From Methanomassiliicoccales archaeon (lineage in GTDB: Archaea; Thermoplasmatota; Thermoplasmata; GCA-020350865), in assembly GCA_020347705.1 (NCBI GenBank), contig CP070739.1:2446834-2491851 (forward strand): DNA of 45,018 nt, in the 5' to 3' direction. Positions 19,801 to 40,988 of the stretch are shown in pieces; within the stretch, counting starts at the first letter, position 1, and each line of letters opens with the position of its first letter. Made by a program: the position numbers and the translations under genes. Under the pieces are notes generated by a model. It made no database searches. It was given only the letters and a program-made list of their open reading frames with translations, and was not told the origin of the DNA.

Positions 19801-21288
19801 GTGATAACCTATTCCCTCGATTCTGCACCCTCGGGCATGGAAATCGACTCCATGGGTATAATCAATTGGACACCAAACGATCTTCAGGCATCATATACGT
19901 TCAATGTTATTGTCAATGTATCGGATGGCGAGGAATTCGATTTACAGATCTTCGATATCGATGTAACCAACTTAAACGATGAACCCGAGATAGTCTCCAC
20001 ACCCGTCACATCTGCTCTCGAGGATCATCAGTATACCTACGACGTCAACGCAAACGACGTGGACCAGGGAGATGTGCTAACGTACAAACTCGATATTGCA
20101 CCCCAAGGTATGACCATCAATGAAGAAAGCGGTGTAATCTCGTGGCTTCCAACAAATGATGATGTCGGAGAGAACAGAGTGAGAGTCAATGTTAGCGATG
20201 TTGCAGGCTATTATCATACACAAGAATTTACCCTCATCGTCACCAATACCAATGATAAGCCTTTTTTGGAACCAATAGGTGAATTGGTTGCAACAGAGGA
20301 TCAGCTGTTTGAATATCAGGTTGTGGCAACTGATGTGGATTCGGGTGATGTGCTGAGTTTCTATGATGATTCAGGATTATTTCAGATAGACAAAGACACC
20401 GGTATAATATTCTTTACACCTTCCAACGATGATGTGGGAACCCACACTGTGAAAGTTACAGTAAAGGATGAAGATGGTGCCATGGCCAACGAAACCGTAA
20501 CCTTCAAGGTCTTAAATGCAAACGATCCGCCTGTCCTGGATTTCATCAGCAATTGGCAGGCAACAGAAGATAAGGAGTTCACATTGACCATCACGGCCGA
20601 CGACATTGATGCAGATGATTCAATGACATTCTCTGATAACACAACATTATTTGATATCGACCCGAACACAGGTGAGATAACATTTACTCCGAAAAATGAA
20701 GATGTGGGAGTGCATTTGGTCAATATCTCGGTTGTGGATGAAAATGGGTTAATAGATTTTCAAGAAGTTACTTTCATAATAGAGAATACAAACGATCCAC
20801 CCTCAATAGACCGAGAAGGCGCTCCAGATGCGACCGTTGATTTTGAGTTGTCCACAGGAGGGACTTTCACATACAAAATCAATGTAGAGGACGTAGACAC
20901 GGGCGATACTTTGACTTTCAGTGATGATACAGACCTGTTCGATATAGATCCAAATACCGGAGAGATTTCATTTACACCAACTAAAGATGATGTTGGAACC
21001 CATACAGTCACTATAACCGTTACCGATAGCGAGGGAGATACCGATTCCCTGATCATGACATTCGAGGTGGTTGGCGAAAAGGAGGAGGGAGTCGATTTAA
21101 TATGGTTGATGTTGTCGATATTAGTGGTAATAATTGTCATTGTTATTCTGTACTTTGGATGGAAAAGGAAAAGAGCTACATCCAATGAGGAGGTCATGGT
21201 AGTGGAAGAATCACCCGATAAGGTGAATGAAATACCAAAACCAGCGGACTTGCCCCCTCCACCCCCGCCGCCTCCTCCCCCTCCATAA
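16837..21288 (+). CDS. Giant surface adhesin-like protein: TM/signal + TIGR03790-like domain with inserted CBM-like module + CARDB + 2 PKD + 6 cadherin-like repeats + TM + poly-Pro tail
   Basis: TIGR03790-like motifs: VLVIRNLNSP...TTKGVPLRV...ASVDSEL...VTRFTG...GDPKLEP. CARDB: GDSIDITATFENRGPV...ESNNIA. PKD: WDFGDGS and WYFGDGN. The six repeats each end in xNDxP. TM: LIWLMLSILVVIIVIVILYFGW. An AAGGAGAG RBS is present. Confidence 0.85.
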   Translation: MAYWPKQRSSSIPEGRNGPSIIILGLIFLLLIGCLHIFDGEVIQIERESENRNDFRLDPRENDIQLPDSQKMKTTTRSQPEYYDLISYDDVLVIRNLNSPISMQIADYFQAARNISNSHICNISTLTIEVVSRTVFENEIRGPIEDFIVNNGLLGQINYIVTTKGVPLRVLQDANAWDTASVDSELTMILGPYQSGIGQPFYVNNPYFDPPTYQEFSWSLYGIFLVTRFTGYDWDDIKPLIDKPEMSIGRKGTFVLDVDPRKDGGGYEVGNTWMRDANVSLTAKGFDVVLDETNTFLTGNENVSGYCSWGSNDGSWNYGVNQNYGFETDSNGDDLPDNWLLERDFGNDDIDRNNTRKIGSWSLRINRSVVNTNYSAASQNVTIKPGVRYFLKGQVNFSSCSGGKGAHLRIEAYNGLDLLVWEKNGNPRTSPPDLWRSLNQVIYEPIDGVTKLCVSVIFSEASGEGYFDDVRLVEIKPDNTWIPGAIVETYVSTGGRSFTYGTQYGQSLVADLIMDGVTGTKGYVYEPFLDACAHPDIYLDAYTDGFKLAESYYMASVWIGWMDVVIGDPKLEPYDSDIIPDLEIVSQNISFSEEMPGEGDSIDITATFENRGPVRVSNITVEFWAGDPGSGSLLGSKIVDVEGFDSNSTSIVWDTGGYGGFHNITVFLDAKDIYFELSESNNIANRSIAVHTGPPTADAGKDDSVNEDSQYTFNASASTDNTSIENYTWDFGDGSLGYGEYPTHTYTLNDTYEVVLNVTNVFGFWDQDTMNISVNNVIPTADAGEDESGIEGQPLTFNASGSWDTPSDIDTLNYTWYFGDGNIGFGMEVTYAFQDNGTYNVTLEVRDDDGAKRNDTLNVTLSNSDPQITQLSSQISQEDSIFTIQIYATDVSGDTITFFDNSTLFTIDPVSGEISFTPQNEDVGDHLINITAFDEDGGEGYMEFLLTVENTNDPPHIVSTPITDATEETLYQYQVVVEDDDLLVSEYEVITYSLDSAPSGMEIDSMGIINWTPNDLQASYTFNVIVNVSDGEEFDLQIFDIDVTNLNDEPEIVSTPVTSALEDHQYTYDVNANDVDQGDVLTYKLDIAPQGMTINEESGVISWLPTNDDVGENRVRVNVSDVAGYYHTQEFTLIVTNTNDKPFLEPIGELVATEDQLFEYQVVATDVDSGDVLSFYDDSGLFQIDKDTGIIFFTPSNDDVGTHTVKVTVKDEDGAMANETVTFKVLNANDPPVLDFISNWQATEDKEFTLTITADDIDADDSMTFSDNTTLFDIDPNTGEITFTPKNEDVGVHLVNISVVDENGLIDFQEVTFIIENTNDPPSIDREGAPDATVDFELSTGGTFTYKINVEDVDTGDTLTFSDDTDLFDIDPNTGEISFTPTKDDVGTHTVTITVTDSEGDTDSLIMTFEVVGEKEEGVDLIWLMLSILVVIIVIVILYFGWKRKRATSNEEVMVVEESPDKVNEIPKPADLPPPPPPPPPPP
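19423..21075 (+). repeat. Six tandem ~92-aa cadherin-like (dystroglycan-type/He_PIG-like) domain repeats inside the adhesin gene
   Basis: A recurring pattern is NDxPxI...ATEDxxFxYQVxAxDVDxGDxLTFxDxxxLFxIDPxTGEIxFTPxNxDVGxHxVxIxVxDxxG...FxVxN. The repeats are diverged at the DNA level. Confidence 0.7.
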
Positions 21289-21299
21289 TATTTATCTTT

Positions 21300-22469
21300 T
21301 TATTTCACTACATCGATAGCGTGTATCTCTAGTGTATCTTGGAAATTAAATCCATACATCAGAGGATTCTCATATATCAGTGCGGGTTTTGCATCGGCAG
21401 GTAATCCACCCATATACAAAGAACCCGCAGGGTCTGCAGCGAGCCATGAGTTACCTTCATCCTTAAAGATGACATAGTTCGATTCCGTGCCATAATAATT
21501 ATCGATGGCCTCTAGAATCTCATTTATTTCGGTTCCGTTGCCGATGTAAAGCGCAGGAAAGGCATGGCTTTTTGTGAGATAGACCCGTGTGGTCCCGCCA
21601 ATGGCCCCCACCATAGAGGAAAAGAGTATGGAAAAATCCTCACAATCCCCACCGCCTTTGTTCAGGGTATCTTGGCAGTATGCCCAGTAATCTCTTCCCG
21701 CAGGATCCGAAATATATGTGAGATTGTTCACAATGAAATCGAATATGGCCAACACCTGATAGATATTGTAATCACCCTCGTAGGCAGCTGTTATGTTGGA
21801 GACAAGGTTTTGAACCTCAACGGCTTCAAAATCCACCTTTTCATTGAGTTTATCCTGGTAATATTTGTAGTTATTTGTCAACTTGATATCATCCTTACCT
21901 TTCAATGGATGTACAAAAAATATTTTCTCTGACCCAAGGACGGTACCGTTGTCGTACCAGCTTTCTATGTTGTGTTTCGAATACAGTCCATTGTCCATTA
22001 CAAGGAGCGATATCAGGACTTGATACGTATAATTTCCAGTGGTGTTAGGTGCGTTAAAATAGACCAGTCCAAGATGTTTTTCCTCCCCGACACGGATCAA
22101 GACATTCCGCTCCTCGTAGATCCATTCTGAAGGAGTTGACCAGTTCACTACAATACCGCTTCTGTAGACGAATATGTCGTTCGAACCGGTATTTTCGATG
22201 CTGATTCTGATGAAACCTCCCCAGAACGCATACACATCCCCCATGGCCCAGTTAATTTTGTATTTGAAACCAGGAGGAAGTTGTGATTCGTTCACAGGAG
22301 GTTTATCAGGCATAGAATGGGGTGGGTAGGACGGCACCTGAGGTGCAACCAGATCTTCTTCCTTGAATTCCTCTCCATGATCCTCTTCATCTGAAAACCA
22401 AGTGCAACCCGATAAAGTTTGAAACAAAAACAGTCCCAATATCAGAACAATAAAAAATCTTCGTCTCAT
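21300..22469 (-). CDS. Transglutaminase-like (Cys-His-Asp) lipoprotein
   Basis: A signal peptide with lipobox L-S-G-C (FQTLSGCTW) is present. The transglutaminase core reads GGGDCEDFSILFSSMVGAIG ... KSHAF ... AADPAG. Confidence 0.7.
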   Translation of the reverse strand: MRRRFFIVLILGLFLFQTLSGCTWFSDEEDHGEEFKEEDLVAPQVPSYPPHSMPDKPPVNESQLPPGFKYKINWAMGDVYAFWGGFIRISIENTGSNDIFVYRSGIVVNWSTPSEWIYEERNVLIRVGEEKHLGLVYFNAPNTTGNYTYQVLISLLVMDNGLYSKHNIESWYDNGTVLGSEKIFFVHPLKGKDDIKLTNNYKYYQDKLNEKVDFEAVEVQNLVSNITAAYEGDYNIYQVLAIFDFIVNNLTYISDPAGRDYWAYCQDTLNKGGGDCEDFSILFSSMVGAIGGTTRVYLTKSHAFPALYIGNGTEINEILEAIDNYYGTESNYVIFKDEGNSWLAADPAGSLYMGGLPADAKPALIYENPLMYGFNFQDTLEIHAIDVVK

Positions 22470-22603
22470 ATGATCTTCGAGCGGAGAATATGTGGGTTTT
22501 ATTAAATAAAAGTTTTCATGAGGTTATCATGAATTATCCTTGTAAAAGAAAATATAATCCCACTTGCCTTCCAATAAAATGAATAAAAAGAATTATGCAA
22601 AAA

Positions 22604-22613
22604 ATATTTAAAA
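22604..22613 (+). promoter_or_regulatory. BRE/TATA-like box for the candidate ncRNA
   Basis: gcaaaaaATATTTAAAAgcc. The box centre lies ~27 nt upstream of G22636, the first base of the terminal helix. Confidence 0.3.
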
Positions 22614-22635
22614 GCCTATGGTCATACTTTTATTT

Positions 22636-22790
22636 GAGAGGAGTAGCGTAGTAAGGCCATTCGGTGTTTGGCACGCTTACTCAGAAAGCTGTGCTCCGAA
22701 ATTACAAATATTAAATGGCAGCGCGTCAGGAAGAATATCCTGTGTCCATTAGTACAGGGGAATTGCCTGCTCCTCTCACCTGAACTTTTG
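22636..22790 (+). ncRNA. Candidate structured non-coding RNA of unknown class
   Basis: An 11-bp terminal helix GAGAGGAGUAG (22636-46) / CUGCUCCUCUC (22767-77) encloses a bulged hairpin (22651-22680), an A-rich single-stranded stretch and a GGCAG/UUGCC domain (22717-22767). That domain contains mutually exclusive CAGG/CCUG/CAGG hairpins. T-rich tracts follow the helix. The only ORF here (minus strand, 74 aa) looks like noise. Confidence 0.3.
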
Positions 22791-22905
22791 ATCTTTGATT
22801 GATTACCTAATCGTTCTTGGATACTCACGACTACTAGCTCGATCATAGTCCAATTTCAAGGATAAATATCTGCATTAATAAACGTCGCCAGTAAATAAAA
22901 GGAGC

Positions 22906-23445
22906 TTATTCTTTTATGATCTCCAAACTCAAGGTTTCAAAGGCTTTGTTGACATTCTCTCCTGTCTTGGCGCTTGAGGAGAAGACAGCAGATTTTTCGT
23001 ATTTGGCGGCGAATTCACCGAATTCATCCAATGTGAACTGGGCTTTGTTCTCAAGATCGGATTTATTGGCAAGGAATATAATAGGCACCTTGCCCGTGAC
23101 ATTGAAGGCCGACTCAATCCAACCGTCGAGTTCCTCCATGGTTTCTTTATTAGTAATATCACAAACCGCTATCAATCCCTGAGCTCCGTAGAAATATGCC
23201 TCCTGGAGTAACTCCCTGAATCCCTTCTGACCCATGATGTCCCATATCAGTATTGTCACATTTACTTTATCTCCCTTGGAAGGATGTTTGATTGTGACCT
23301 CCTTTTTAGTTATCTTGGTGCCTAATGTTGTGATATATTTGCCATCGAATGCATCGAAAACGAATCTTTTAATTAGACTGGTTTTTCCAACTGCTCCTTC
23401 ACCCACCAGGCAAATCTTCAACTTGATAATTTTGCTATCGGGCAT
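22906..23445 (-). CDS. Ras-superfamily small GTPase (Rab/Rup-like), 179 aa
   Basis: All five G boxes are present: G1 GEGAVGKT, G2 TTLGT, G3 WDIMGQ, G4 NKSD, G5 SAKTG. ATG 23445 is preceded by AAAGGAGGGGAG. There is no C-terminal Cys prenylation motif. Confidence 0.88.
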   Translation of the reverse strand: MPDSKIIKLKICLVGEGAVGKTSLIKRFVFDAFDGKYITTLGTKITKKEVTIKHPSKGDKVNVTILIWDIMGQKGFRELLQEAYFYGAQGLIAVCDITNKETMEELDGWIESAFNVTGKVPIIFLANKSDLENKAQFTLDEFGEFAAKYEKSAVFSSSAKTGENVNKAFETLSLEIIKE

Positions 23446-23745
23446 TTTCTCCCCTCCTTTCGGGACTTGGAAATTCCAATTTATGACACAATGATGTAAT
23501 GCTCTCATCATTAATAAAACCTTTCAACCACGAGATTATTTTACATATTTATGCTCACACCCTTTATAATAAATAGATATATTAGTTGAAAATATTCCAA
23601 AAGGGGAATATATGGCCTTTTTTATCTGGTCTGGCGTGTAACAGAGCATCTGTAAAATCACACCACAATCTATTTAGATGAGTGAAACATTTTAGTTTAC
23701 AGGAAGTCGGAAACTAATACTATCTCTTCAAAAGGAGATGATAAC

Positions 23746-24960
23746 TTGCCTGAGAATGGGGAAGAAAATGAAATGACTGAAAGCACCCAAAATAAGACCG
23801 ATAAATTAAGTGCAGAGCAGGCCATCAAGGCTTATATTGGGACATATATCGATTCATACATGGATTATGTGGAGGAGTTGAACCTTAATGAAGCGGATTT
23901 CCCCCTGTTCTATACCTATTATCCATTTGTCGTCAGAGGGTATATATTACCGGATAATTCAACTTGTATCCTTTTTGAAGGACTTGCATCTTCCGCTGAC
24001 ATAATCGTAGAGAAAGCGGACTTCAATTCAGTTGATTCCGAGATTACCAAAAGGAAATTCGATCACATCTGTTGCTACCCTCCTTCCCATCTATACACGA
24101 AGGAGGAGGCTCGATTCCAGGCGAGAAAGGATGTAGATCAAGATGTCGAAAACGCCAGGGCCCTGGGCCGTGAAAAGACGGAGTTTGCGAAACGAGATGA
24201 GACACTCAAATCCATCAAACTATTAAATGTTACGATACCGTGGATTGGCACCAGAAAAACTGAACAAGGTACTTTACGTTCTCCACCCAAAACCGAGGCA
24301 ACAAAATTCACTTTTGAGGAGTTAAAAATAAAAGAAAACGAGGATTTTTCCAGCTACTCAGAAAGGGTAAAGAATTTAGAGACGGCCATTTTTACTCCCT
24401 CAAAAAAAGAGTCAGTACCCGCCGCAGGAAAAGCGGCGTTAACTCCGAGTACACCCCTTTCCCCTCCGCCCGTGGTGCCGCAAGGGGCCAATATCAGTAT
24501 CGAAATCAAACAGCCAGAGGCACCTGTAAAGGAGGAAAAATACGACGAGAAAAAAGATCTTGATATCCTCCGCCTGAAAAAGACCCTTTACATTCAAACC
24601 ACCGACATCGAAGACCTCAGGCGAAGGGTAATGGAACTTACCAACAAGTTCGGAAATATCGAGCAGATGAGGCAAACGGTCTTCAGGATGAACAGGAAAG
24701 TGTACGACATGGATGCGCGCATGAGCAACGTGGAAAAGACCAACAGGGATACGATGAAAAAAGTGGCAGAGATGCGTGCAGAGCAGAGGGAAGAAAATAA
24801 AAAGATGAGGCGTTTCATAACCGAGAAAGCTAAAAAATCTCGAAACCAGGCCATGATGGTTGGTTTTGTGGCAATTGCTATCTCACTGGTCACCCTATTT
24901 TTCGGCCTGCCTTTGATCGTGGAATATTGGGATGTTGTGAGTAATTTTTTCGGTTTTTGA
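23746..24960 (+). CDS. Tail-anchored coiled-coil protein, function unknown
   Basis: The protein has an N-terminal ~130-aa globular part and a Pro-rich linker (PSTPLSPPPVVP). A ~100-aa heptad region is followed by a basic juxtamembrane KAKKSRNQ and a single TM (AMMVGFVAIAISLVTLFFGLPLIV) 15 aa from the C-terminus. The TTG start is preceded by AAGGAGA. Confidence 0.6.
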   Translation: MPENGEENEMTESTQNKTDKLSAEQAIKAYIGTYIDSYMDYVEELNLNEADFPLFYTYYPFVVRGYILPDNSTCILFEGLASSADIIVEKADFNSVDSEITKRKFDHICCYPPSHLYTKEEARFQARKDVDQDVENARALGREKTEFAKRDETLKSIKLLNVTIPWIGTRKTEQGTLRSPPKTEATKFTFEELKIKENEDFSSYSERVKNLETAIFTPSKKESVPAAGKAALTPSTPLSPPPVVPQGANISIEIKQPEAPVKEEKYDEKKDLDILRLKKTLYIQTTDIEDLRRRVMELTNKFGNIEQMRQTVFRMNRKVYDMDARMSNVEKTNRDTMKKVAEMRAEQREENKKMRRFITEKAKKSRNQAMMVGFVAIAISLVTLFFGLPLIVEYWDVVSNFFGF

Positions 24961-24962
24961 GT

Positions 24963-25235
24963 TTATTTTTCTTTTTTCGTCCATTCCAATGCAACACCGC
25001 AGCCAGAGCAGTAGTTTGCCGCCACTTTCAATTCCTCGTTGCATTTGGGACATCTATAGATTATACTCTTACCCTTTTTGGAAAGCTCCGCCAGCTCCTC
25101 CTCTCCTAGAATTTCGTCCAGCAGATAGCGACCTACGATCACTCCTCCTATAAATCCCACCACCGCGTAGCCTGCAGCCTCAGGGTTCGCATCCTTTTTC
25201 TTTTCCATTTTTAGCACCGAATGTTCTATATTCAA
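24963..25235 (-). CDS. Small membrane protein with C-terminal zinc ribbon
   Basis: A TM segment (GYAVVGFIGGVIVGRYLL) and CPKC...CSGC are present. The start is ambiguous (M1 or M10). Confidence 0.5.
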   Translation of the reverse strand: MNIEHSVLKMEKKKDANPEAAGYAVVGFIGGVIVGRYLLDEILGEEELAELSKKGKSIIYRCPKCNEELKVAANYCSGCGVALEWTKKEK

Positions 25236-25367
25236 ATAACCTCACCAATATAAATCATTGTCGCCTATTGTAGGCATAACCCCCAATTTGCCGGAGAAAA
25301 ACCTAAAAGAGAAAGCTTATATGGTATAACTTAAATAACATCCAAAACCCCCAAAGGAGGGACAAAA

Positions 25368-26561
25368 TTGAAGGCCGTAATCCTTGCAGCAGGAGAAGGT
25401 ACAAGATTGAGACCGTTCACAGTATCCAAACCGAAGGTTATGATACCCATAGCCAACCGTCCCATAATAGAATATGCTGTGGATGCCCTGTCCCAGAATG
25501 GGATTAAAGATATCGTAATAGTGGTCGGCTACAAAAAGGAGCGTATAATGAGCCATTTTGAAGACGGGAAAAAATTCGGAGTGGATATTAAATATGTCTT
25601 TCAACCAAAACCGCTGGGTACGGCACATGCATTACTTCAGGCACAAGAGGATATAACCTCGGACTTTTTGGTGTTACCGGGGGACAACCTCATTGACTTA
25701 AAGGAAGTATCAAAACTCATGGAAAGCGAAGGCGAAAATTCACTTCTCATTGCAGAAAGCGATATTCCTTCTAAATACGGCGTAGTGTTTTTGGAAAAAG
25801 GAAATATTACCAAGATATTGGAAAAACCACCAGAAAAACTGAGCAATCTCATAAGCACAGGTATTTATCGATTTACTCCAGGCGTCTTTGATTCCATCAG
25901 TGTTATGGGAGAAGAAGGTAAACATGCGCTTTCGGCCGTTGTTCAATTCATGATCGAAAAAGGACATAAAATAAGCGGAATACGCGGGGTTGGGAAGTGG
26001 ATAGATGCCGTATATCCCTGGGACATACTCGATGTAAATGCCTCGGCCATTACGGACGCGAAAATCGGAGTTGCTGGAAATATCGAAGAAGGGGCCATAA
26101 TCAAAGGCCAGGTATCTATTGGAGACGGAAGCGTAATAAGATCCGGATCGTACATCGTTGGACCTGTTGTCATCGGAAAAGGATGCGAGATAGGCCCAAA
26201 TGTGTGTATATACCCCTCAACAAGCATAGGTGATAATGTATCAATTCAACCGTTTTGCATGGTGAAACACAGCGTTCTCATGAACGATGTACAGATTGGT
26301 AGCTCATCAACGATATCAAACTCGGTGATCGGTGATGGTGTGCGGATAGGTTCGCATTTCACCACCAATAACGATGAGGCGTTAGTTCAAATAGAATCGG
26401 GATATCATTCTGTAGCTAATATCGGAGCCATAATTGGAGAAGATTCGGATATCGGGGATCTGGTTAATGTTCGTCCCGGTATGATAATGGGTGCCAGATG
26501 TAAGGTTTCATCCTCGATAGTACTCGAAGGTTCGTTGCCAAACAGAAGCATAGTAATGTAA
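25368..26561 (+). CDS. glmU: Bifunctional sugar-1-phosphate nucleotidylyltransferase / left-handed beta-helix acetyltransferase (archaeal GlmU-type)
   Basis: MKAVILAAGEGTRLRP is a nucleotidyltransferase motif. The C-terminal half is hexapeptide repeats (IGDGSVI, IGKGCEI, IGDNVSI, IGDGVRI). The TTG start has AAAGGAGGG upstream. Confidence 0.75.
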   Translation: MKAVILAAGEGTRLRPFTVSKPKVMIPIANRPIIEYAVDALSQNGIKDIVIVVGYKKERIMSHFEDGKKFGVDIKYVFQPKPLGTAHALLQAQEDITSDFLVLPGDNLIDLKEVSKLMESEGENSLLIAESDIPSKYGVVFLEKGNITKILEKPPEKLSNLISTGIYRFTPGVFDSISVMGEEGKHALSAVVQFMIEKGHKISGIRGVGKWIDAVYPWDILDVNASAITDAKIGVAGNIEEGAIIKGQVSIGDGSVIRSGSYIVGPVVIGKGCEIGPNVCIYPSTSIGDNVSIQPFCMVKHSVLMNDVQIGSSSTISNSVIGDGVRIGSHFTTNNDEALVQIESGYHSVANIGAIIGEDSDIGDLVNVRPGMIMGARCKVSSSIVLEGSLPNRSIVM

Positions 26562-36251: not shown

Positions 36252-39200
36252 GTGGGTGTTGTAAATTGGGTGATACTTGTGTCATACCATAAAAAAGTGG
36301 GCATTAAATCAGAATTTTTAAGAAAACCGTGGACGAGTTTGATAGGATATTTTATACTGCTATCACTCATTATTTCTGCAGTTTTGGTGATTCCGGTACC
36401 AGTTGCTGCAAACAACCCACCCGGTATCGCGATTGTTGAACCTGATCATGGGGCGACGGTTAGTGGAGTTGTGGTGGTCTGGATGGTGGCCTGGGACCCT
36501 GACGGGAATGATGAAATCCAGGAAGTGTGGGTCAAGATCGATGGTGGAGAGCTACTTAATGCAACCTATAATCACACCGATGCCGAGGGCCAGTGGTGGT
36601 ACTACGAATGGGACACCACAGAAGTTGAGGACGGATGGCATCATATCACGGGCATCACGTTTGACGGCATTGATGACGCTCTTGATATAATAGAGGTTTA
36701 TGTTGATAATGTTCCGGACAACAATCCACCAGGTATCGATATCGTCGAGCCTGGAGGAGGAGAAACAGTGAGTGGGGTTGTTGTAGTTTGGATGGTGGCC
36801 TGGGATCCAGATGGGAATGATCAGATAGAGGAAGTATGGGTCAGGATCGATAATGGAGAACTCCGTAATGCTACCTATAACCATACCGATGGTGAGGGCC
36901 AGTGGTGGTACTACGAATGGGATACAACAGAGGTGGAGGATGGATGGCATACAATTAAGGCCATCACGTTCGACGGTGTCGATGACGCTCATGATTTAAT
37001 AGAGGTCTTTGTGGACAATGAGCCGGATAACAGCCCGCCTGGTATCGCGATTGTAGAGCCTGATCATGGGGCGACGGTTAGCGGAGTGGTCGTAATCTGG
37101 ATGGTTGCTTGGGATTCGGACGGGAATGATCAGATACAGGAAGTATGGGTCAGGATCGATGGCGGAGAGCTACTCAATGCAACCTATAACCATACCGATG
37201 GTGAGGGCCAATGGTGGTATTACGAATGGGACACCACGGAGGTAGAGGACGGATGGCATGATATCACGGGCATCACATTCGACGGCATCGATGATGCGCA
37301 TGACGTAATAGAGGTCTTGGTGGACAATGAGCCGGACAACAATCCCCCACACGTGGAGATAATGGAACCCGAACAAGGGGCAACGGTAAGCGGTGTTGTG
37401 GAAGTGTGGATACGTGCCTGGGATGCTGATGGTCCCGATGACATAGAGGCCGTGTTCGTGAAGATCGATAACGGTAATTGGAACTCGGCCACATTCGTAG
37501 AAATCGAAGGTGAATACTCATGGTGGGTGTGGGAATGGGATACTACAGAGGTTGAAGACGGTGAGCATCACATCTACGCCAGGGGTTGGGACGGTGAGGA
37601 TCACTCTGAGGATGATGTAATATGGGTTATCGTGGACAATGAGCCGGACAACAATCCACCCGGCATCGCGATCGTTGAGCCAGAAGATGGAGCGACTGTT
37701 AATGGAATAATCGTTATCTGGATGGTTGCTTGGGATCCAGATGGTAATGACCAGATAGAGGAAGTGTGGGTCAGAATCGATAATGGAGAACTGCGTAATG
37801 CAACCTATAACCATACCAATGGTGAGGGCCAGTGGTGGTACTACGAATGGGACACCACAGAAGTGGAGGACGGATGGCATTTAATAAAGGCCATCACATT
37901 CGACGGTATTGACGATGCTCATGATGCAATTGAGGTCTTTGTTGATAACATTCCAGAAAACAACCCCCCCGGTATCGCGATCGTTGAGCCGGAAGATGGA
38001 GCGACGGTTAGTGGAATAATCGTTATCTGGATGGTTGCCTGGGATCCAGATGGGAATGATCAGATAGAGGAAGTGTGGGTAAGAATCGACAATGGAGAGC
38101 TTCGAAATGCAACCTATAACCATACCAATGGCGAGGGACAATGGTGGTATTACGAATGGGATACTACAGAGGTGGAGGACGGATGGCATTTAATCAAAGC
38201 CATCACTTACGACGGTGTCGATGACGCTCATGATGCAATAGAGGTTTTTGTGGACAATGAGCCTGACAATAATCCACCGCACGTTGAGATCATGGAACCC
38301 GAACAAGGGGCAACGGTAAGCGGTGTTGTGGAAGTGTGGATACGTGCCTGGGATGCGGATGGTCTCGATGACATAGAGGCCGTGTTCGTGAAGATCGATA
38401 ACGGTGATTGGTACGAGGCCAACTTCGTAGAAATCGAAGGTGATTACTCATGGTGGGTGTGGGAGTGGGACACAACAGAGGTTGAGGACGGTGAGCATCA
38501 CATCTACGCCAGGGCATGGGACGGTGAAGACCATTCCGAGGACGATGTGATATGGGTCATAGTGGACAATGAGCCAGACAACAATGCACCGGGCATCGCG
38601 ATCGTAGAACCTGATCATGGCGCAACGGTTAGCGGAGTTGTCGTAGTCTGGATGGTTGCTTGGGACCCTGACGGCAACGATGAGATCCAGGAAGTGTGGG
38701 TCAGGATCGATAATGGAGAGCTACGAAATGCAACCTATAATCACACCGATGCCGAGGGCCAGTGGTGGTACTACGAATGGGATACCACAGAGGTTGAAGA
38801 TGGATGGCATTCAATCAAGGCCACCTGCTTCGACGGCATCGATGATGGGCATGATATAATAGAAGTCTTTGTGGACAATGTTCCGGACAACAGCCCACCG
38901 CATGTGGAGATAATGGAACCCGAACATGGGGCAACGGTCAGCGGTGTTGTGGAGGTGTGGATACGTGCCTGGGATGCGGATGGTCTCGATGACATCGAAG
39001 CCGTGTTCGTGAAGGTCGACAACGGTGAATGGCATCAAGCTACCTTCGTAGAAATAGAAGGCGATTACTCATGGTGGGTGTGGGAATGGGATACCACAGA
39101 GGTTGAAGATGGCGAGCATCATATCTTCGCCAGGGCCTGCGACGGTGAAGAACACTCCGAGGACGATGTGATAGGGGTCATCGTGGATAACGTTCCAGAG

Positions 39201-40988
39201 AACAATGCACCCGGTATCGAAATAGTGGAGCCAGATGATGGTGAAACGGTGAGCGGTGTAATCGAAATCTGGATGGTGGCTTGGGACCCGGATGGCAACG
39301 ATGAAATCGAAAACGTTTGGGTAAAGATCGATAATGGTAATTGGCATGAGGCCACCTTCGTTGAGATAGACTCTGAAGGCTCCTGGTGGGTGTTCGAGTG
39401 GGATACCACCACCGTTGAAAACGGCTGGCATCATGTCTATGCCAAGACGACAGACGGCGAGCTGTGGGCGGACGATGTGATCGAAGTCTTTGTATATAAC
39501 CTAATAGATAATCATCCTCCATACATCGAAATCATGGAGCCTGGAAATGGTGAGACCGTTTCAGGAGTCATCGAGATATGGATGGTGGCATGGGATGCGG
39601 ACGGACTTGACGATATCGAAAATGTATGGGTAAAAATCGATGACGGACCACCTGCTGAAGCGATCTTTCATCACATTGATGGGTTAGGTTCATGGTGGGT
39701 GCTTGAGTGGGATACCACCACCGTTGAGGATGGTTGGCATCATATAACGGCCATAGTTTATGATGGTATCGATGACGGGCACGATGTCATAGAGGTGAAG
39801 GTTGACAACGACCAAACTGAGAACAGCCCACCGCAAGTTGAGATAGTGGAACCGGAACAAGGGGATACTGTAAGTGGTGTTGTGGAAGTTTGGCTCCGCG
39901 CATGGGATGCCGACGGAAAAGAGGATGTGGAGGCGGTGTTCGTGAAGATTGATGACGGTGAATGGCATGAGGCCACATTTGACGAATATGGAGGCGATTA
40001 CTCGTGGTGGGTGTGGGAGTGGGATACCACAACGGTTGAGGATGGTGAGCATCACATCTTTGCCAGGGCATGGGATGGTGAGGATCATTCTGAGGATGAT
40101 GTGATCGGGGTCATCGTGAAAAACGAGGGTGATGACGGAGGAGAAGGTGGAGGAGCTGGTGGCGGAGAAAGTGCAGGGGGGGATGGAGGAGAGAGTGAGG
40201 GCGGTTCCGGCTCATCCGAACCAGATGGCGGTTCCCCTGACGATGGCGGAGAGAGCGGCGGAGAAAGTGGTGGAGAAAGTGGTGGAGAGAGTGAGGGTGG
40301 AACAGGAACAACCGGATCAATCGGAGGCCCTGAGGAAAATAACGACGGCACCGGAGAATCAGCTTCGGATTCTGAGGCATCGTTGGATAATGATAAGGTG
40401 TCAATTAGGGATTCCGACTCAACGCAGCAATTTAACTGGATATATGTAATCATATCTCTTACCGCTGTAAGCGCTTTGGTGGCATTTTCCGTGGCTGCAG
40501 GGACTGAGGTAGGCACATTTGCACTCCTCAGTTTAATAATTCTACCGCTGTATACGAAGCTCAGTAAAAAGGAAATCCTCGATCAATTCGTTAGAGGCCA
40601 GATATTCGGATATATTAAGGTCAATCCCGGAGATAATTATACCACCATTAAAAAGAACCTGGACCTGAATAACGGAACCCTGACATATCATCTTAATGTT
40701 CTGGAGCGCGAGGGGTTAATCAAATCGTGGAACAATGGAAGCCACAAGTATTTCTATCCAAAAGGTGTAAATATTCCGGGTAACGGGGTGAAGAATCCAA
40801 GTATCCATGATGCAATTCTGAAGAGCATCAAGGATAGCCCGGGAATATCTGTCAAGGACATAGCAGCAGTTTGTGGCATTTCCCGCCAGCTAGCGAATTA
40901 TCATGTAAGAAAACTGGCTGCTTCCGGTTCAATCGCGCTGGAAAGAGGACCATTATCCAAGGTCTGCTTCCCAATAAACGTTGATTAG
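36252..40988 (+). CDS. Giant membrane protein: signal/anchor + 12 Ig-like repeats + acidic Gly/Glu/Ser linker + hydrophobic segment + tandem winged-helix (ArsR/MarR-like) module
   Basis: This is a single open frame of 1578 codons; GTG 36297 is an alternative start. The repeats fit the Big_7-like pattern IxxPxxGxTVSGxVxVxxxAxDxDG...V.VxIDxG.W..A......W.x.WDTTxVxDGxHxI. The C-terminus contains NPGDNYTTIKKNLDLNNGTLTYHLNVLEREGLIKS and SPGISVKDIAAVCGISRQLANYHVRKLAASGSIAL. Confidence 0.85.
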   Translation: MGVVNWVILVSYHKKVGIKSEFLRKPWTSLIGYFILLSLIISAVLVIPVPVAANNPPGIAIVEPDHGATVSGVVVVWMVAWDPDGNDEIQEVWVKIDGGELLNATYNHTDAEGQWWYYEWDTTEVEDGWHHITGITFDGIDDALDIIEVYVDNVPDNNPPGIDIVEPGGGETVSGVVVVWMVAWDPDGNDQIEEVWVRIDNGELRNATYNHTDGEGQWWYYEWDTTEVEDGWHTIKAITFDGVDDAHDLIEVFVDNEPDNSPPGIAIVEPDHGATVSGVVVIWMVAWDSDGNDQIQEVWVRIDGGELLNATYNHTDGEGQWWYYEWDTTEVEDGWHDITGITFDGIDDAHDVIEVLVDNEPDNNPPHVEIMEPEQGATVSGVVEVWIRAWDADGPDDIEAVFVKIDNGNWNSATFVEIEGEYSWWVWEWDTTEVEDGEHHIYARGWDGEDHSEDDVIWVIVDNEPDNNPPGIAIVEPEDGATVNGIIVIWMVAWDPDGNDQIEEVWVRIDNGELRNATYNHTNGEGQWWYYEWDTTEVEDGWHLIKAITFDGIDDAHDAIEVFVDNIPENNPPGIAIVEPEDGATVSGIIVIWMVAWDPDGNDQIEEVWVRIDNGELRNATYNHTNGEGQWWYYEWDTTEVEDGWHLIKAITYDGVDDAHDAIEVFVDNEPDNNPPHVEIMEPEQGATVSGVVEVWIRAWDADGLDDIEAVFVKIDNGDWYEANFVEIEGDYSWWVWEWDTTEVEDGEHHIYARAWDGEDHSEDDVIWVIVDNEPDNNAPGIAIVEPDHGATVSGVVVVWMVAWDPDGNDEIQEVWVRIDNGELRNATYNHTDAEGQWWYYEWDTTEVEDGWHSIKATCFDGIDDGHDIIEVFVDNVPDNSPPHVEIMEPEHGATVSGVVEVWIRAWDADGLDDIEAVFVKVDNGEWHQATFVEIEGDYSWWVWEWDTTEVEDGEHHIFARACDGEEHSEDDVIGVIVDNVPENNAPGIEIVEPDDGETVSGVIEIWMVAWDPDGNDEIENVWVKIDNGNWHEATFVEIDSEGSWWVFEWDTTTVENGWHHVYAKTTDGELWADDVIEVFVYNLIDNHPPYIEIMEPGNGETVSGVIEIWMVAWDADGLDDIENVWVKIDDGPPAEAIFHHIDGLGSWWVLEWDTTTVEDGWHHITAIVYDGIDDGHDVIEVKVDNDQTENSPPQVEIVEPEQGDTVSGVVEVWLRAWDADGKEDVEAVFVKIDDGEWHEATFDEYGGDYSWWVWEWDTTTVEDGEHHIFARAWDGEDHSEDDVIGVIVKNEGDDGGEGGGAGGGESAGGDGGESEGGSGSSEPDGGSPDDGGESGGESGGESGGESEGGTGTTGSIGGPEENNDGTGESASDSEASLDNDKVSIRDSDSTQQFNWIYVIISLTAVSALVAFSVAAGTEVGTFALLSLIILPLYTKLSKKEILDQFVRGQIFGYIKVNPGDNYTTIKKNLDLNNGTLTYHLNVLEREGLIKSWNNGSHKYFYPKGVNIPGNGVKNPSIHDAILKSIKDSPGISVKDIAAVCGISRQLANYHVRKLAASGSIALERGPLSKVCFPINVD
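36411..40122 (+). repeat. Tandem coding repeat array: 12 units of 309 or 312 bp, two interleaved subtypes
   Basis: I verified unit starts codon by codon at 36411, 36720, 37029, 37338, 37650, 37959, 38268, 38580, 38889, 39201, 39510 and 39822. Each begins AAC/AAT (Asn) followed by N/S/H-P/A-P. Confidence 0.95.
40578..40985 (+). other. Tandem winged helix-turn-helix module (C-terminal ~135 aa of the giant ORF)
   Basis: LDQFVRGQIFGYIKVNPGDNYTTIKKNLDLNNGTLTYHLNVLEREGLIKSWNNGSHKYFYP, then IHDAILKSIKDSPGISVKDIAAVCGISRQLANYHVRKLAASGSIALERGPLSKVCF. Both show the helix-turn-recognition helix-wing spacing of ArsR/MarR-type wHTH domains. Confidence 0.6.

Follow-up and report, generated by a model that had tools for sequence, protein, structure and literature searches.

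A Rab-like small GTPase gene head-to-head with a gene for a tail-anchored coiled-coil protein in a Thermoplasmata archaeon

A 45,018-nucleotide stretch of a Methanomassiliicoccales genome (assembly GCA_020347705.1, contig CP070739.1, forward-strand positions 2,446,834 to 2,491,851; hereafter the window, numbered from its first nucleotide) carries a gene for a small GTPase of the Ras superfamily and, diverging from it, a gene for a protein, here called the partner, that is predicted to end in a long helix and a single transmembrane (TM) segment. We propose, tentatively, that the two are functionally related and that the partner family provides effectors, adaptors or regulators for Rab-like GTPases. 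The relation is plausible because two separate clades of the partner family pair head-to-head with different Rab-like GTPase subfamilies. Binding between GTPase and partner, the part of the partner that makes the contact, the dependence on nucleotide and the downstream function are all things we infer. If the binding depends on GTP, the tail-anchored partner would hold the switch or its output on the cytoplasmic side of the membrane, on a stalk extending inwards by at least about 15 nm. The GTPase is unlipidated and so would need a protein to reach the membrane. A first-pass annotation of the window, made from the sequence alone, had suggested that the pair could form a membrane-recruitment or remodelling module, an interpretation that the present analysis supports in part.

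Two pairings of one protein family with Rab-like GTPases

Within the genus, the GTPase and partner genes are adjacent in all five species genomes, the window's own included, and in two metagenome loci. A scan of the sequence collection with profile alignment A5 returned three genome loci and two metagenome loci. Two of three further NCBI genomes have consecutive protein accessions for the GTPase and the partner; the third (4.2 Mb) has a 5'-partial partner without its first 71 residues and a GTPase accession 1208 numbers away, which may reflect a rearrangement or an assembly break, and was counted neither way. Thirteen GTPase and partner ortholog pairs agree in the size of the longest contig on which they lie, some of these being just 3.3–4.4 kb.

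The second pairing occurs in a different taxonomic family of the class, f4. Twenty loci that hold paralogs or distant members of the family were fetched; in four of them, each from f4, the family gene lies head-to-head with a Rab-like GTPase gene. A class-wide search found the f4-type paralog in all 30 genomes of f4 and all three of the taxonomic family f24, and 30 loci were returned (28 from f4 and two from f24). A long-form Rab-like GTPase is head-to-head with the paralog in all 28 f4 loci, with the aligned 5' ends 90–305 bp apart, and the pairing persists while identity between the partners falls to 40%. In f24, which is a sister lineage of f4 in the N-domain tree, one locus lies on a short contig and the other has the GTPase 2.5 kb upstream, still divergent. 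The f4-type GTPases are 38–41% identical to the window GTPase (five loci, four from f4 and one from f24). The f4 paralog itself is approximately 370–390 aa long and has no TM segment. If the families cooperate, membrane anchoring would therefore be confined to this genus and certain other branches and not extend to the whole family. The pairing in f4 thus agrees with the module idea of the first-pass annotation, while the anchoring that it assumed is not family-wide.

In the tree of the partner N-terminal domain (N-domain), the clade of the genus and that of f4 each have 100/99 support, and lineages that are not adjacent to a GTPase lie between them. A tree forcing both GTPase-adjacent clades together was rejected by the approximately unbiased (AU) test (lnL difference 49.9, p-AU 0.0005). 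Complex prediction with partner residues 1–365, the GTPase, GTP and Mg, run with separate alignments and without controls, scored 0.01 and 0.00 where the mark is 0.32; the outcome was counted neither way.

As a separate observation on the f4 loci, the paralog is read through two TAG stops in locus L098 and one TAA stop in L099, with the adjacent GTPase intact in each; the stops may mark pseudogenes or stem from sequencing errors or frameshifts.

The two proteins and their surroundings

The open reading frame (ORF) of the GTPase spans 22906..23511 (−) and encodes 201 aa from its first ATG. An internal ATG at 23445, with GGAGGGGAG ahead of it on the coding strand, gives a protein of 179 aa, and this start is used by most rows of a 32-row ortholog alignment, the remaining rows extending upstream through earlier start calls. 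The protein matches Pfam Ras (PF00071) at 1.8e-33 with 115.9 bits against a curated cut-off of 21.6, and NCBIfam small_GTP (TIGR00231) at 1.5e-20 with 73.6 bits against a cut-off of 42.5; Pfam Roc and Arf match as well. All five G boxes characteristic of the Ras superfamily are present (G1 GxxxxGK[ST] as GEGAVGKT, the G2 Thr in TTLGT, G3 DxxGQ in WDIMGQ, G4 NKxD as NKSD and G5 SAK in SAKTG), and their core residues are invariant among 32 orthologs. The C-terminus reads ...LEIIKE, the sole cysteines being those in KICLVG and AVCDIT. There is no C-terminal Cys and therefore no prenylation motif, and the pairing of such a motif with a hypervariable tail that marks eukaryotic Rabs is absent from the sequence. 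The first-pass description of a 179-aa Ras-superfamily GTPase with five G boxes and without a lipidation motif is thus confirmed, as is its placement outside the MglA family. The best PDB match is the Thorarchaeota Rab 7ezb (8.2e-26); Rab6, Sec4 and Rab18 of eukaryotes come next, and the top PDB matches are all Rabs. The RabF1–F5 motifs, reportedly those of Pereira-Leal and Seabra from 2000, show a partial resemblance when compared by eye (IWD..GQ, YFYGA, CDIT).

The host genome is a 3.2-Mb single contig from the class Thermoplasmata and holds 28 matches to PF00071 and 27 GTPase ORFs by phmmer, giving a range of 26–28 GTPases. Other species of the genus have 24–34 matches, and at least one match is found in 33 of 41 relatives. 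The earlier statement that Ras-like GTPases are patchy in archaea does not hold for this lineage. The orthogroup of the window GTPase (40 rows, support 99/95) is distinct within this family of 26–28 paralogs, which comprises approximately 11 short forms and 14 long forms (275–298 aa). Judged from its sequence, the window GTPase is Rab-like, unlipidated and catalytically intact, and it represents one orthogroup of a large lineage-specific expansion.

Several features of the expansion were observed in passing. The long forms (for example L005:1189-2028 (−)) have a conserved helical C-terminal extension of approximately 100 aa with the pattern D.II.DFC..Y.....AM..LR.QF..A.L....P, which no Pfam family matches, and the GTPase paired with the f4 paralog is of this long form. 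Two host GTPase loci (near 1847301-1848590 and 2658297-2658818) are broken by masked runs of N and their full sequences are unreadable. Five Roadblock/LC7 matches were found in the host genome and none inside the window, as the first-pass annotation had noted for the neighbourhood, so that the adjacent Roadblock/LC7 gene typical of MglA/MglB pairs is absent at the window GTPase. The Roadblock/LC7 genes at 1777498-1777755 and 1846985-1847248 directly adjoin other Ras-family GTPases (at 1777855 and 1847301), and these two neighbour pairs look like MglA/MglB-type pairs.

The partner gene diverges from the GTPase gene with 300 bp between the two starts (23446-23745), in agreement with the earlier coordinates. 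It begins with TTG, aligned with ATG in six of six orthologous loci, downstream of a conserved GGAGATGAT. The features of both genes are collected in Table 1. In the predicted model, the N-domain has the order helix, three strands, helix, strand and long helix, and its conserved residues are Y, Y, P, P and D together with a PW motif. The linker that follows differs in length among orthologs and carries the motif NISIEIKQPE, conserved in the clade. The helix that starts near residue 268 is continuous through the membrane segment to approximately residue 393 in the AF2 model. It bears the sequence QTVFRMNRKV (24673-24702), a motif common to distant family members, and the juxtamembrane stretch EENKKMRRFI...RNQA is invariant in 35 partner orthologs. 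Of the approximately 100 aa of heptads described at first, those in residues 268–320 are clear (0.73 of a/d positions hydrophobic; 11 of 2000 shuffles as good), and the signal in residues 320–366 is weak (299 of 2000 shuffles as good). The basic patch KAKKSRNQ on the N-terminal side of a single TM segment was likewise confirmed, although the tail beyond that segment is of 12 rather than 15 residues. Basic residues at this position fit an orientation with the N-terminus inside, and no N-terminal signal sequence was found, the N-terminus being acidic. The partner is predicted to be tail-anchored, with a lone TM segment near the C-terminus, no signal peptide and its bulk in the cytoplasm.

Table 1. 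Coordinates of the GTPase and partner genes and of associated features in the window
Feature	Position	Strand	Basis or remark
Rab-like small GTPase, short form	22906..23445	−	179 aa; Pfam Ras match
Promoter-like block upstream of GTPase	23494..23523	−	7 intergenic regions aligned
Promoter-like block ACCACAATCTATTTAG upstream of partner	23662..23677	+	Nearly invariant in 7 intergenic regions
Ribosome-binding-like GGAGATGAT and TTG start of partner	23734..23748	+	Conserved across orthologous loci
Tail-anchored protein of unnamed family (partner)	23746..24960	+	404 aa; AF2 model, mean pLDDT 74
N-terminal alpha/beta domain, residues ~19–165	23800..24240	+	Domain model pLDDT 84.6, pTM 0.73
Pro/Ser/acidic low-complexity linker, predicted disordered	24241..24546	+	pLDDT <50 in model residues 158–192 and 206–256
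Long cytoplasmic helix (predicted), residues ~268–368	24547..24849	+	Continuous helix in AF2 model
Single C-terminal TM segment, residues ~369–392	24850..24921	+	Hydropathy scan; 12-residue tail after it

The partner family is one without a name, and no fold match was found for it. No Pfam or NCBIfam family scored above cut-off for the partner, and at E<=10 the full protein and its C-terminal 146 aa returned only sub-threshold coiled-coil noise in Pfam (MCU, DUF2207_C, SlyX, Dor1). A PDB profile search gave nothing below E 0.18. For the whole model, Foldseek found nothing in the PDB at E<=0.001, and all matches in the VIA wide search were to long helices, with Z<8. With the N-domain model, VIA wide reached at most Z 4.2, Foldseek gave nothing at E<=0.001 and the ESM Atlas gave no usable match. 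Longin and Roadblock folds are absent among the 50 VIA wide matches listed for the N-domain. When 17 N-domains were scanned singly against Pfam, no family was common to more than three members, and one matched Fuz_longin_2 at E 0.24. The predicted order of strands and helices in the N-domain differs from that of Roadblock proteins. The earlier comparison with eukaryotic fusion and tethering proteins had been offered as analogy and not homology, which the Pfam, PDB profile and fold searches bear out.

All 48 close partner homologs are unnamed or called hypothetical, with the exception of one labelled 'Ca2+/Na+ antiporter'. The N-domain profile, with which the window partner scores 9.2e-59, retrieved only 69 clusters at E<=0.001 from 1.84 billion representative proteins. 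The family is restricted to Thermoplasmata, where the profile detects it in 66 of the 251 genomes examined, and it occurs in 18 of the 41 relatives. Its members share the N-domain with the conserved residues given above and a signature of the TVFRMNR type (..F/L-x-RMN-x-R/K..) on the C-terminal helix, both present in the window partner; a C-terminal TM segment is found in 27 to 32 of the 69 representatives. Some members (P0049-P0053, P0059, P0061, P0073, P0074, P0076, P0079, P0084) have two or three N-domains ahead of the coiled coil and TM segment. An 830-aa member from a sister taxonomic family of the same order (L034) is extended at its N-terminus by a long stretch that includes a zinc ribbon, C..C...YKRYYC..CK.Y, and a ribbon of this type is also encoded by the gene upstream (L034:86-2104 and L034:2047-4536).

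The intergenic region contains two conserved blocks. In the block upstream of the GTPase, the TTAATAAAA core at 23511-23519, which reads TTTTATTAA on the GTPase strand, is invariant in the seven intergenic regions and is a putative archaeal TATA box; the ACCACAATCTATTTAG block would be the partner promoter. A crude test of 24 regions upstream of GTPase genes revealed no exact 5-mer inverted repeat (spacer 0–10) common to four or more of them; the best 7-mer, GATTGAT, is present in 6 of the 24 and in 42 of 2274 background regions. A search of window positions 21000-26000 with Rfam gave nothing. Convergent with the partner, with coding ends 2 bp apart, is a gene for a 90-aa protein (24963-25235 (−)) with one TM segment and a C-terminal zinc ribbon, which is 75–81% identical in five of the five in-clade loci that reach it; the partner itself is 50–58% identical. 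The region 15779-40988 is rich in cell-surface and glycan genes, including an NAD-dependent epimerase, a GlmU-like nucleotidyltransferase, GlmS, a DUF3492+GT1 glycosyltransferase, a 1483-aa PKD/He_PIG/Big_9 surface protein with a C-terminal TM segment, a transglutaminase-like protein, and Laminin_G_3 and NosD beta-helix proteins. A 1578-aa protein at 36252-40988 (+) is unusual in having winged-helix/MarR-type helix-turn-helix matches at its C-terminus alongside many Big_7 Ig-like repeats.

Shared function or coincidence

The strongest alternative is that the GTPase and the partner are unrelated neighbours. The partner would be a constitutive, lineage-specific protein of membrane or cytoskeleton type in an ancestral housekeeping context, and both its adjacency to the GTPase and the f4 pairing would be frozen coincidences. 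This account stays strong, and we consider it a serious possibility, if a somewhat doubtful one. The observations that follow speak for it and weigh against a functional relation. In the genus, a block of seven genes (surface protein, transglutaminase-like protein, GTPase, partner, zinc-ribbon protein, GlmU-like protein and GlmS) is syntenic in all loci that reach far enough. The adjacency of the pair is therefore no better conserved than that of its housekeeping neighbours and says little alone. Synteny is likewise block-wide in f4, where the GTPase side is flanked by conserved methyltransferase, Csl4, SHMT and ThiF genes in four of four loci, each from another genus. In the neighbourhood sample (251 genomes, 58 out-of-genus loci), the main-copy homologs of the partner at 13 loci of seven other taxonomic families have no GTPase in their flanks (up to 8 kb, shorter at contig ends). 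These main copies adjoin an isopropylmalate/isocitrate dehydrogenase-like gene in seven loci, amid housekeeping genes. Nor is there a GTPase beside nine loci of paralog B or beside five loci of f21, f23 and f24. Co-occurrence of the two genes, which the first-pass annotation had offered as a check, thus gives a mixed outcome: the pair is adjacent throughout the clade, where the whole block is syntenic, and no GTPase lies in the flanks fetched at the 13 main-copy loci.

The distribution of the partner family points the same way. It is all-or-none by taxonomic family (30 of 30 genomes in f4 and 12 of 13 in f9 against 0/27, 0/29, 0/33 and 0/27 in four large families), as expected of a core gene. 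All 18 genomes with the family among the 41 relatives also hold Rab-like GTPases, but GTPases are present in seven of 11 taxonomic families without the partner family, so that the phyletic link is one-way. Each of the two genes has a conserved promoter-like block of its own, and the seven intergenic regions show no operator common to both. No fused Pfam domain was found in the 66 scanned representatives of the 69, and hence no fusion to a GTPase. In addition, the group used in the AU test was defined after the first tree had been seen.

What the account of unrelated neighbours has to absorb is that two separate clades of a small family, of 69 clusters, both came to lie head-to-head with Rab-like GTPases, both pairs being divergent and 90–305 bp apart. 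By our own rough estimate, 26–27 GTPases among approximately 2855 non-overlapping ORFs would give a single partner gene a GTPase as an immediate neighbour by chance in about 2% of cases. The rough chance of any adjacency is 1–2% per lineage, with about a dozen family-level lineages to consider, and less for the same orientation. Each pairing alone could be frozen synteny; the two together are harder to put down to chance.

A functional relation might also take a different form, in which the partner is not a passive anchor or effector but a guanine nucleotide exchange factor (GEF) or GTPase-activating protein (GAP) that acts on the GTPase through its N-domain or its coiled coil. Coiled-coil GEFs have a precedent in Sec2, which acts on Sec4, and 2ocy is among the weak helix matches of the whole partner model. 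Such a role would fit the conserved polar signature (TVFRMNR, ENKKMRRFI) carried by the helix, the lack of a Roadblock-type GAP gene near the window GTPase when two other host GTPases have one adjoining, and the f4 paralog, whose lack of a TM segment means that anchoring is not the function common to the family. However, Pfam, PDB profile and fold searches gave no likeness to known GEF or GAP families, and comparison by hhalign of N-domain alignment A3 with an alignment of the host's own Roadblock proteins gave a probability of 0.1%; we judge a GEF or GAP role improbable.

That the GTPase serves the surrounding envelope genes (the PKD/Ig surface protein, transglutaminase-like lipoprotein, GlmU-like protein, GlmS and glycosyltransferase) instead of the coiled-coil protein appears very improbable. 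The window from approximately 15.8 to 41 kb is rich in such genes and the GTPase and transglutaminase-like genes run in the same direction, but the 436 bp from the GTPase stop to the transglutaminase-like start give no operon structure, and the f4 GTPase pair lies amid unrelated housekeeping genes.

The identification of the partner as a SNARE-like fusion protein is disfavoured and can be given hardly any weight, since only the architecture agrees (a tail anchor, a helix next to the TM segment and a folded N-terminal domain), while a search at E<=10, in which HMMER filters remove most matches above ~0.1, lists no SNARE, synaptobrevin or syntaxin family, the PDB profile search is empty as stated above, no longin fold appears among the top 50 N-domain matches, half of the family lacks a TM segment, and the partner helix has approximately 110 residues against the 53 of the SNARE motif as given in the consulted part of Neveu et al. 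(10.1101/810531). According to the same part of that work, the SNAREs of Heimdallarchaeota were found by SNARE hidden Markov models at E<1e-4 and carry the SNARE motif. They and the window partner are both archaeal tail-anchored helical proteins, but the partner matches no SNARE family.

Relation to known systems

The window GTPase has a Rab-like G domain and a short C-terminus without Cys, and it adds one member to the known archaeal Rab-like kind. In the sections consulted of the survey by Surkont and Pereira-Leal (2016; PMC4915359), archaeal Rab-like proteins have no C-terminal cysteine and a short C-terminus, and the window GTPase is like these proteins and 7ezb in its G boxes and its short, Cys-free C-terminus. 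The same sections credit a Thermoplasmatales archaeon and Aciduliprofundum with a single Rab-like copy each, in contrast to the 26–28 per genome of the present host with their short forms and long forms (extended by approximately 100 aa), and describe no partner like that of the window.

The MglA–MglB and Asgard GTPase–Roadblock/longin modules, as presented by Tran et al. (2024; PMC10933270), likewise have a small GTPase gene beside the gene of a presumed partner. Those genes are in tandem with a Roadblock gene, whereas the window pair is divergent and its partner is a 404-aa protein with a coiled coil and a TM segment that is not a Roadblock protein by profile. In eukaryotes, tail-anchored coiled-coil golgins (giantin, golgin-84, CASP) work with Rab and Arl GTPases. 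Common to these and the window pair would be a peripheral or unlipidated switch and a long coiled coil on a C-terminal TM segment, with its free end in the cytoplasm; in contrast, no sequence or fold homology of the partner to golgins was found, internal membranes are not known in the host, and binding within the window pair is a proposal. By analogy, the module resembles MglA–MglB and Asgard GTPase–Roadblock modules in logic and Rab–golgin systems in architecture, although the searches gave no defining feature of either partner family.

A broader proposal would be that Thermoplasmata, outside Asgard archaea and eukaryotes, possess a dedicated coiled-coil partner family whose tail-anchored members are membrane receptors or tethers, an independently evolved recruitment of the Rab–golgin kind. 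We regard this as unlikely. Word searches of the open-access literature returned no description of such GTPase expansions in Thermoplasmata or of the partner family, which does not prove that none exists.

Very little is known of the proteins with which archaeal Rab-like GTPases work, and Asgard archaea have been the main focus of study. The case described here comes from a non-Asgard lineage with approximately 25–35 switches per genome, a lineage-restricted family and two independent head-to-head pairings. It offers a concrete, testable candidate for the target of such switches in the form of one soluble pair, that of f4, and one membrane-anchored pair, that of the window. If the two proteins do not bind, the window would hold merely another Rab-like paralog beside a hypothetical protein. 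If they do, it would present a prokaryotic small GTPase that is recruited to the membrane through a tail-anchored coiled-coil protein.

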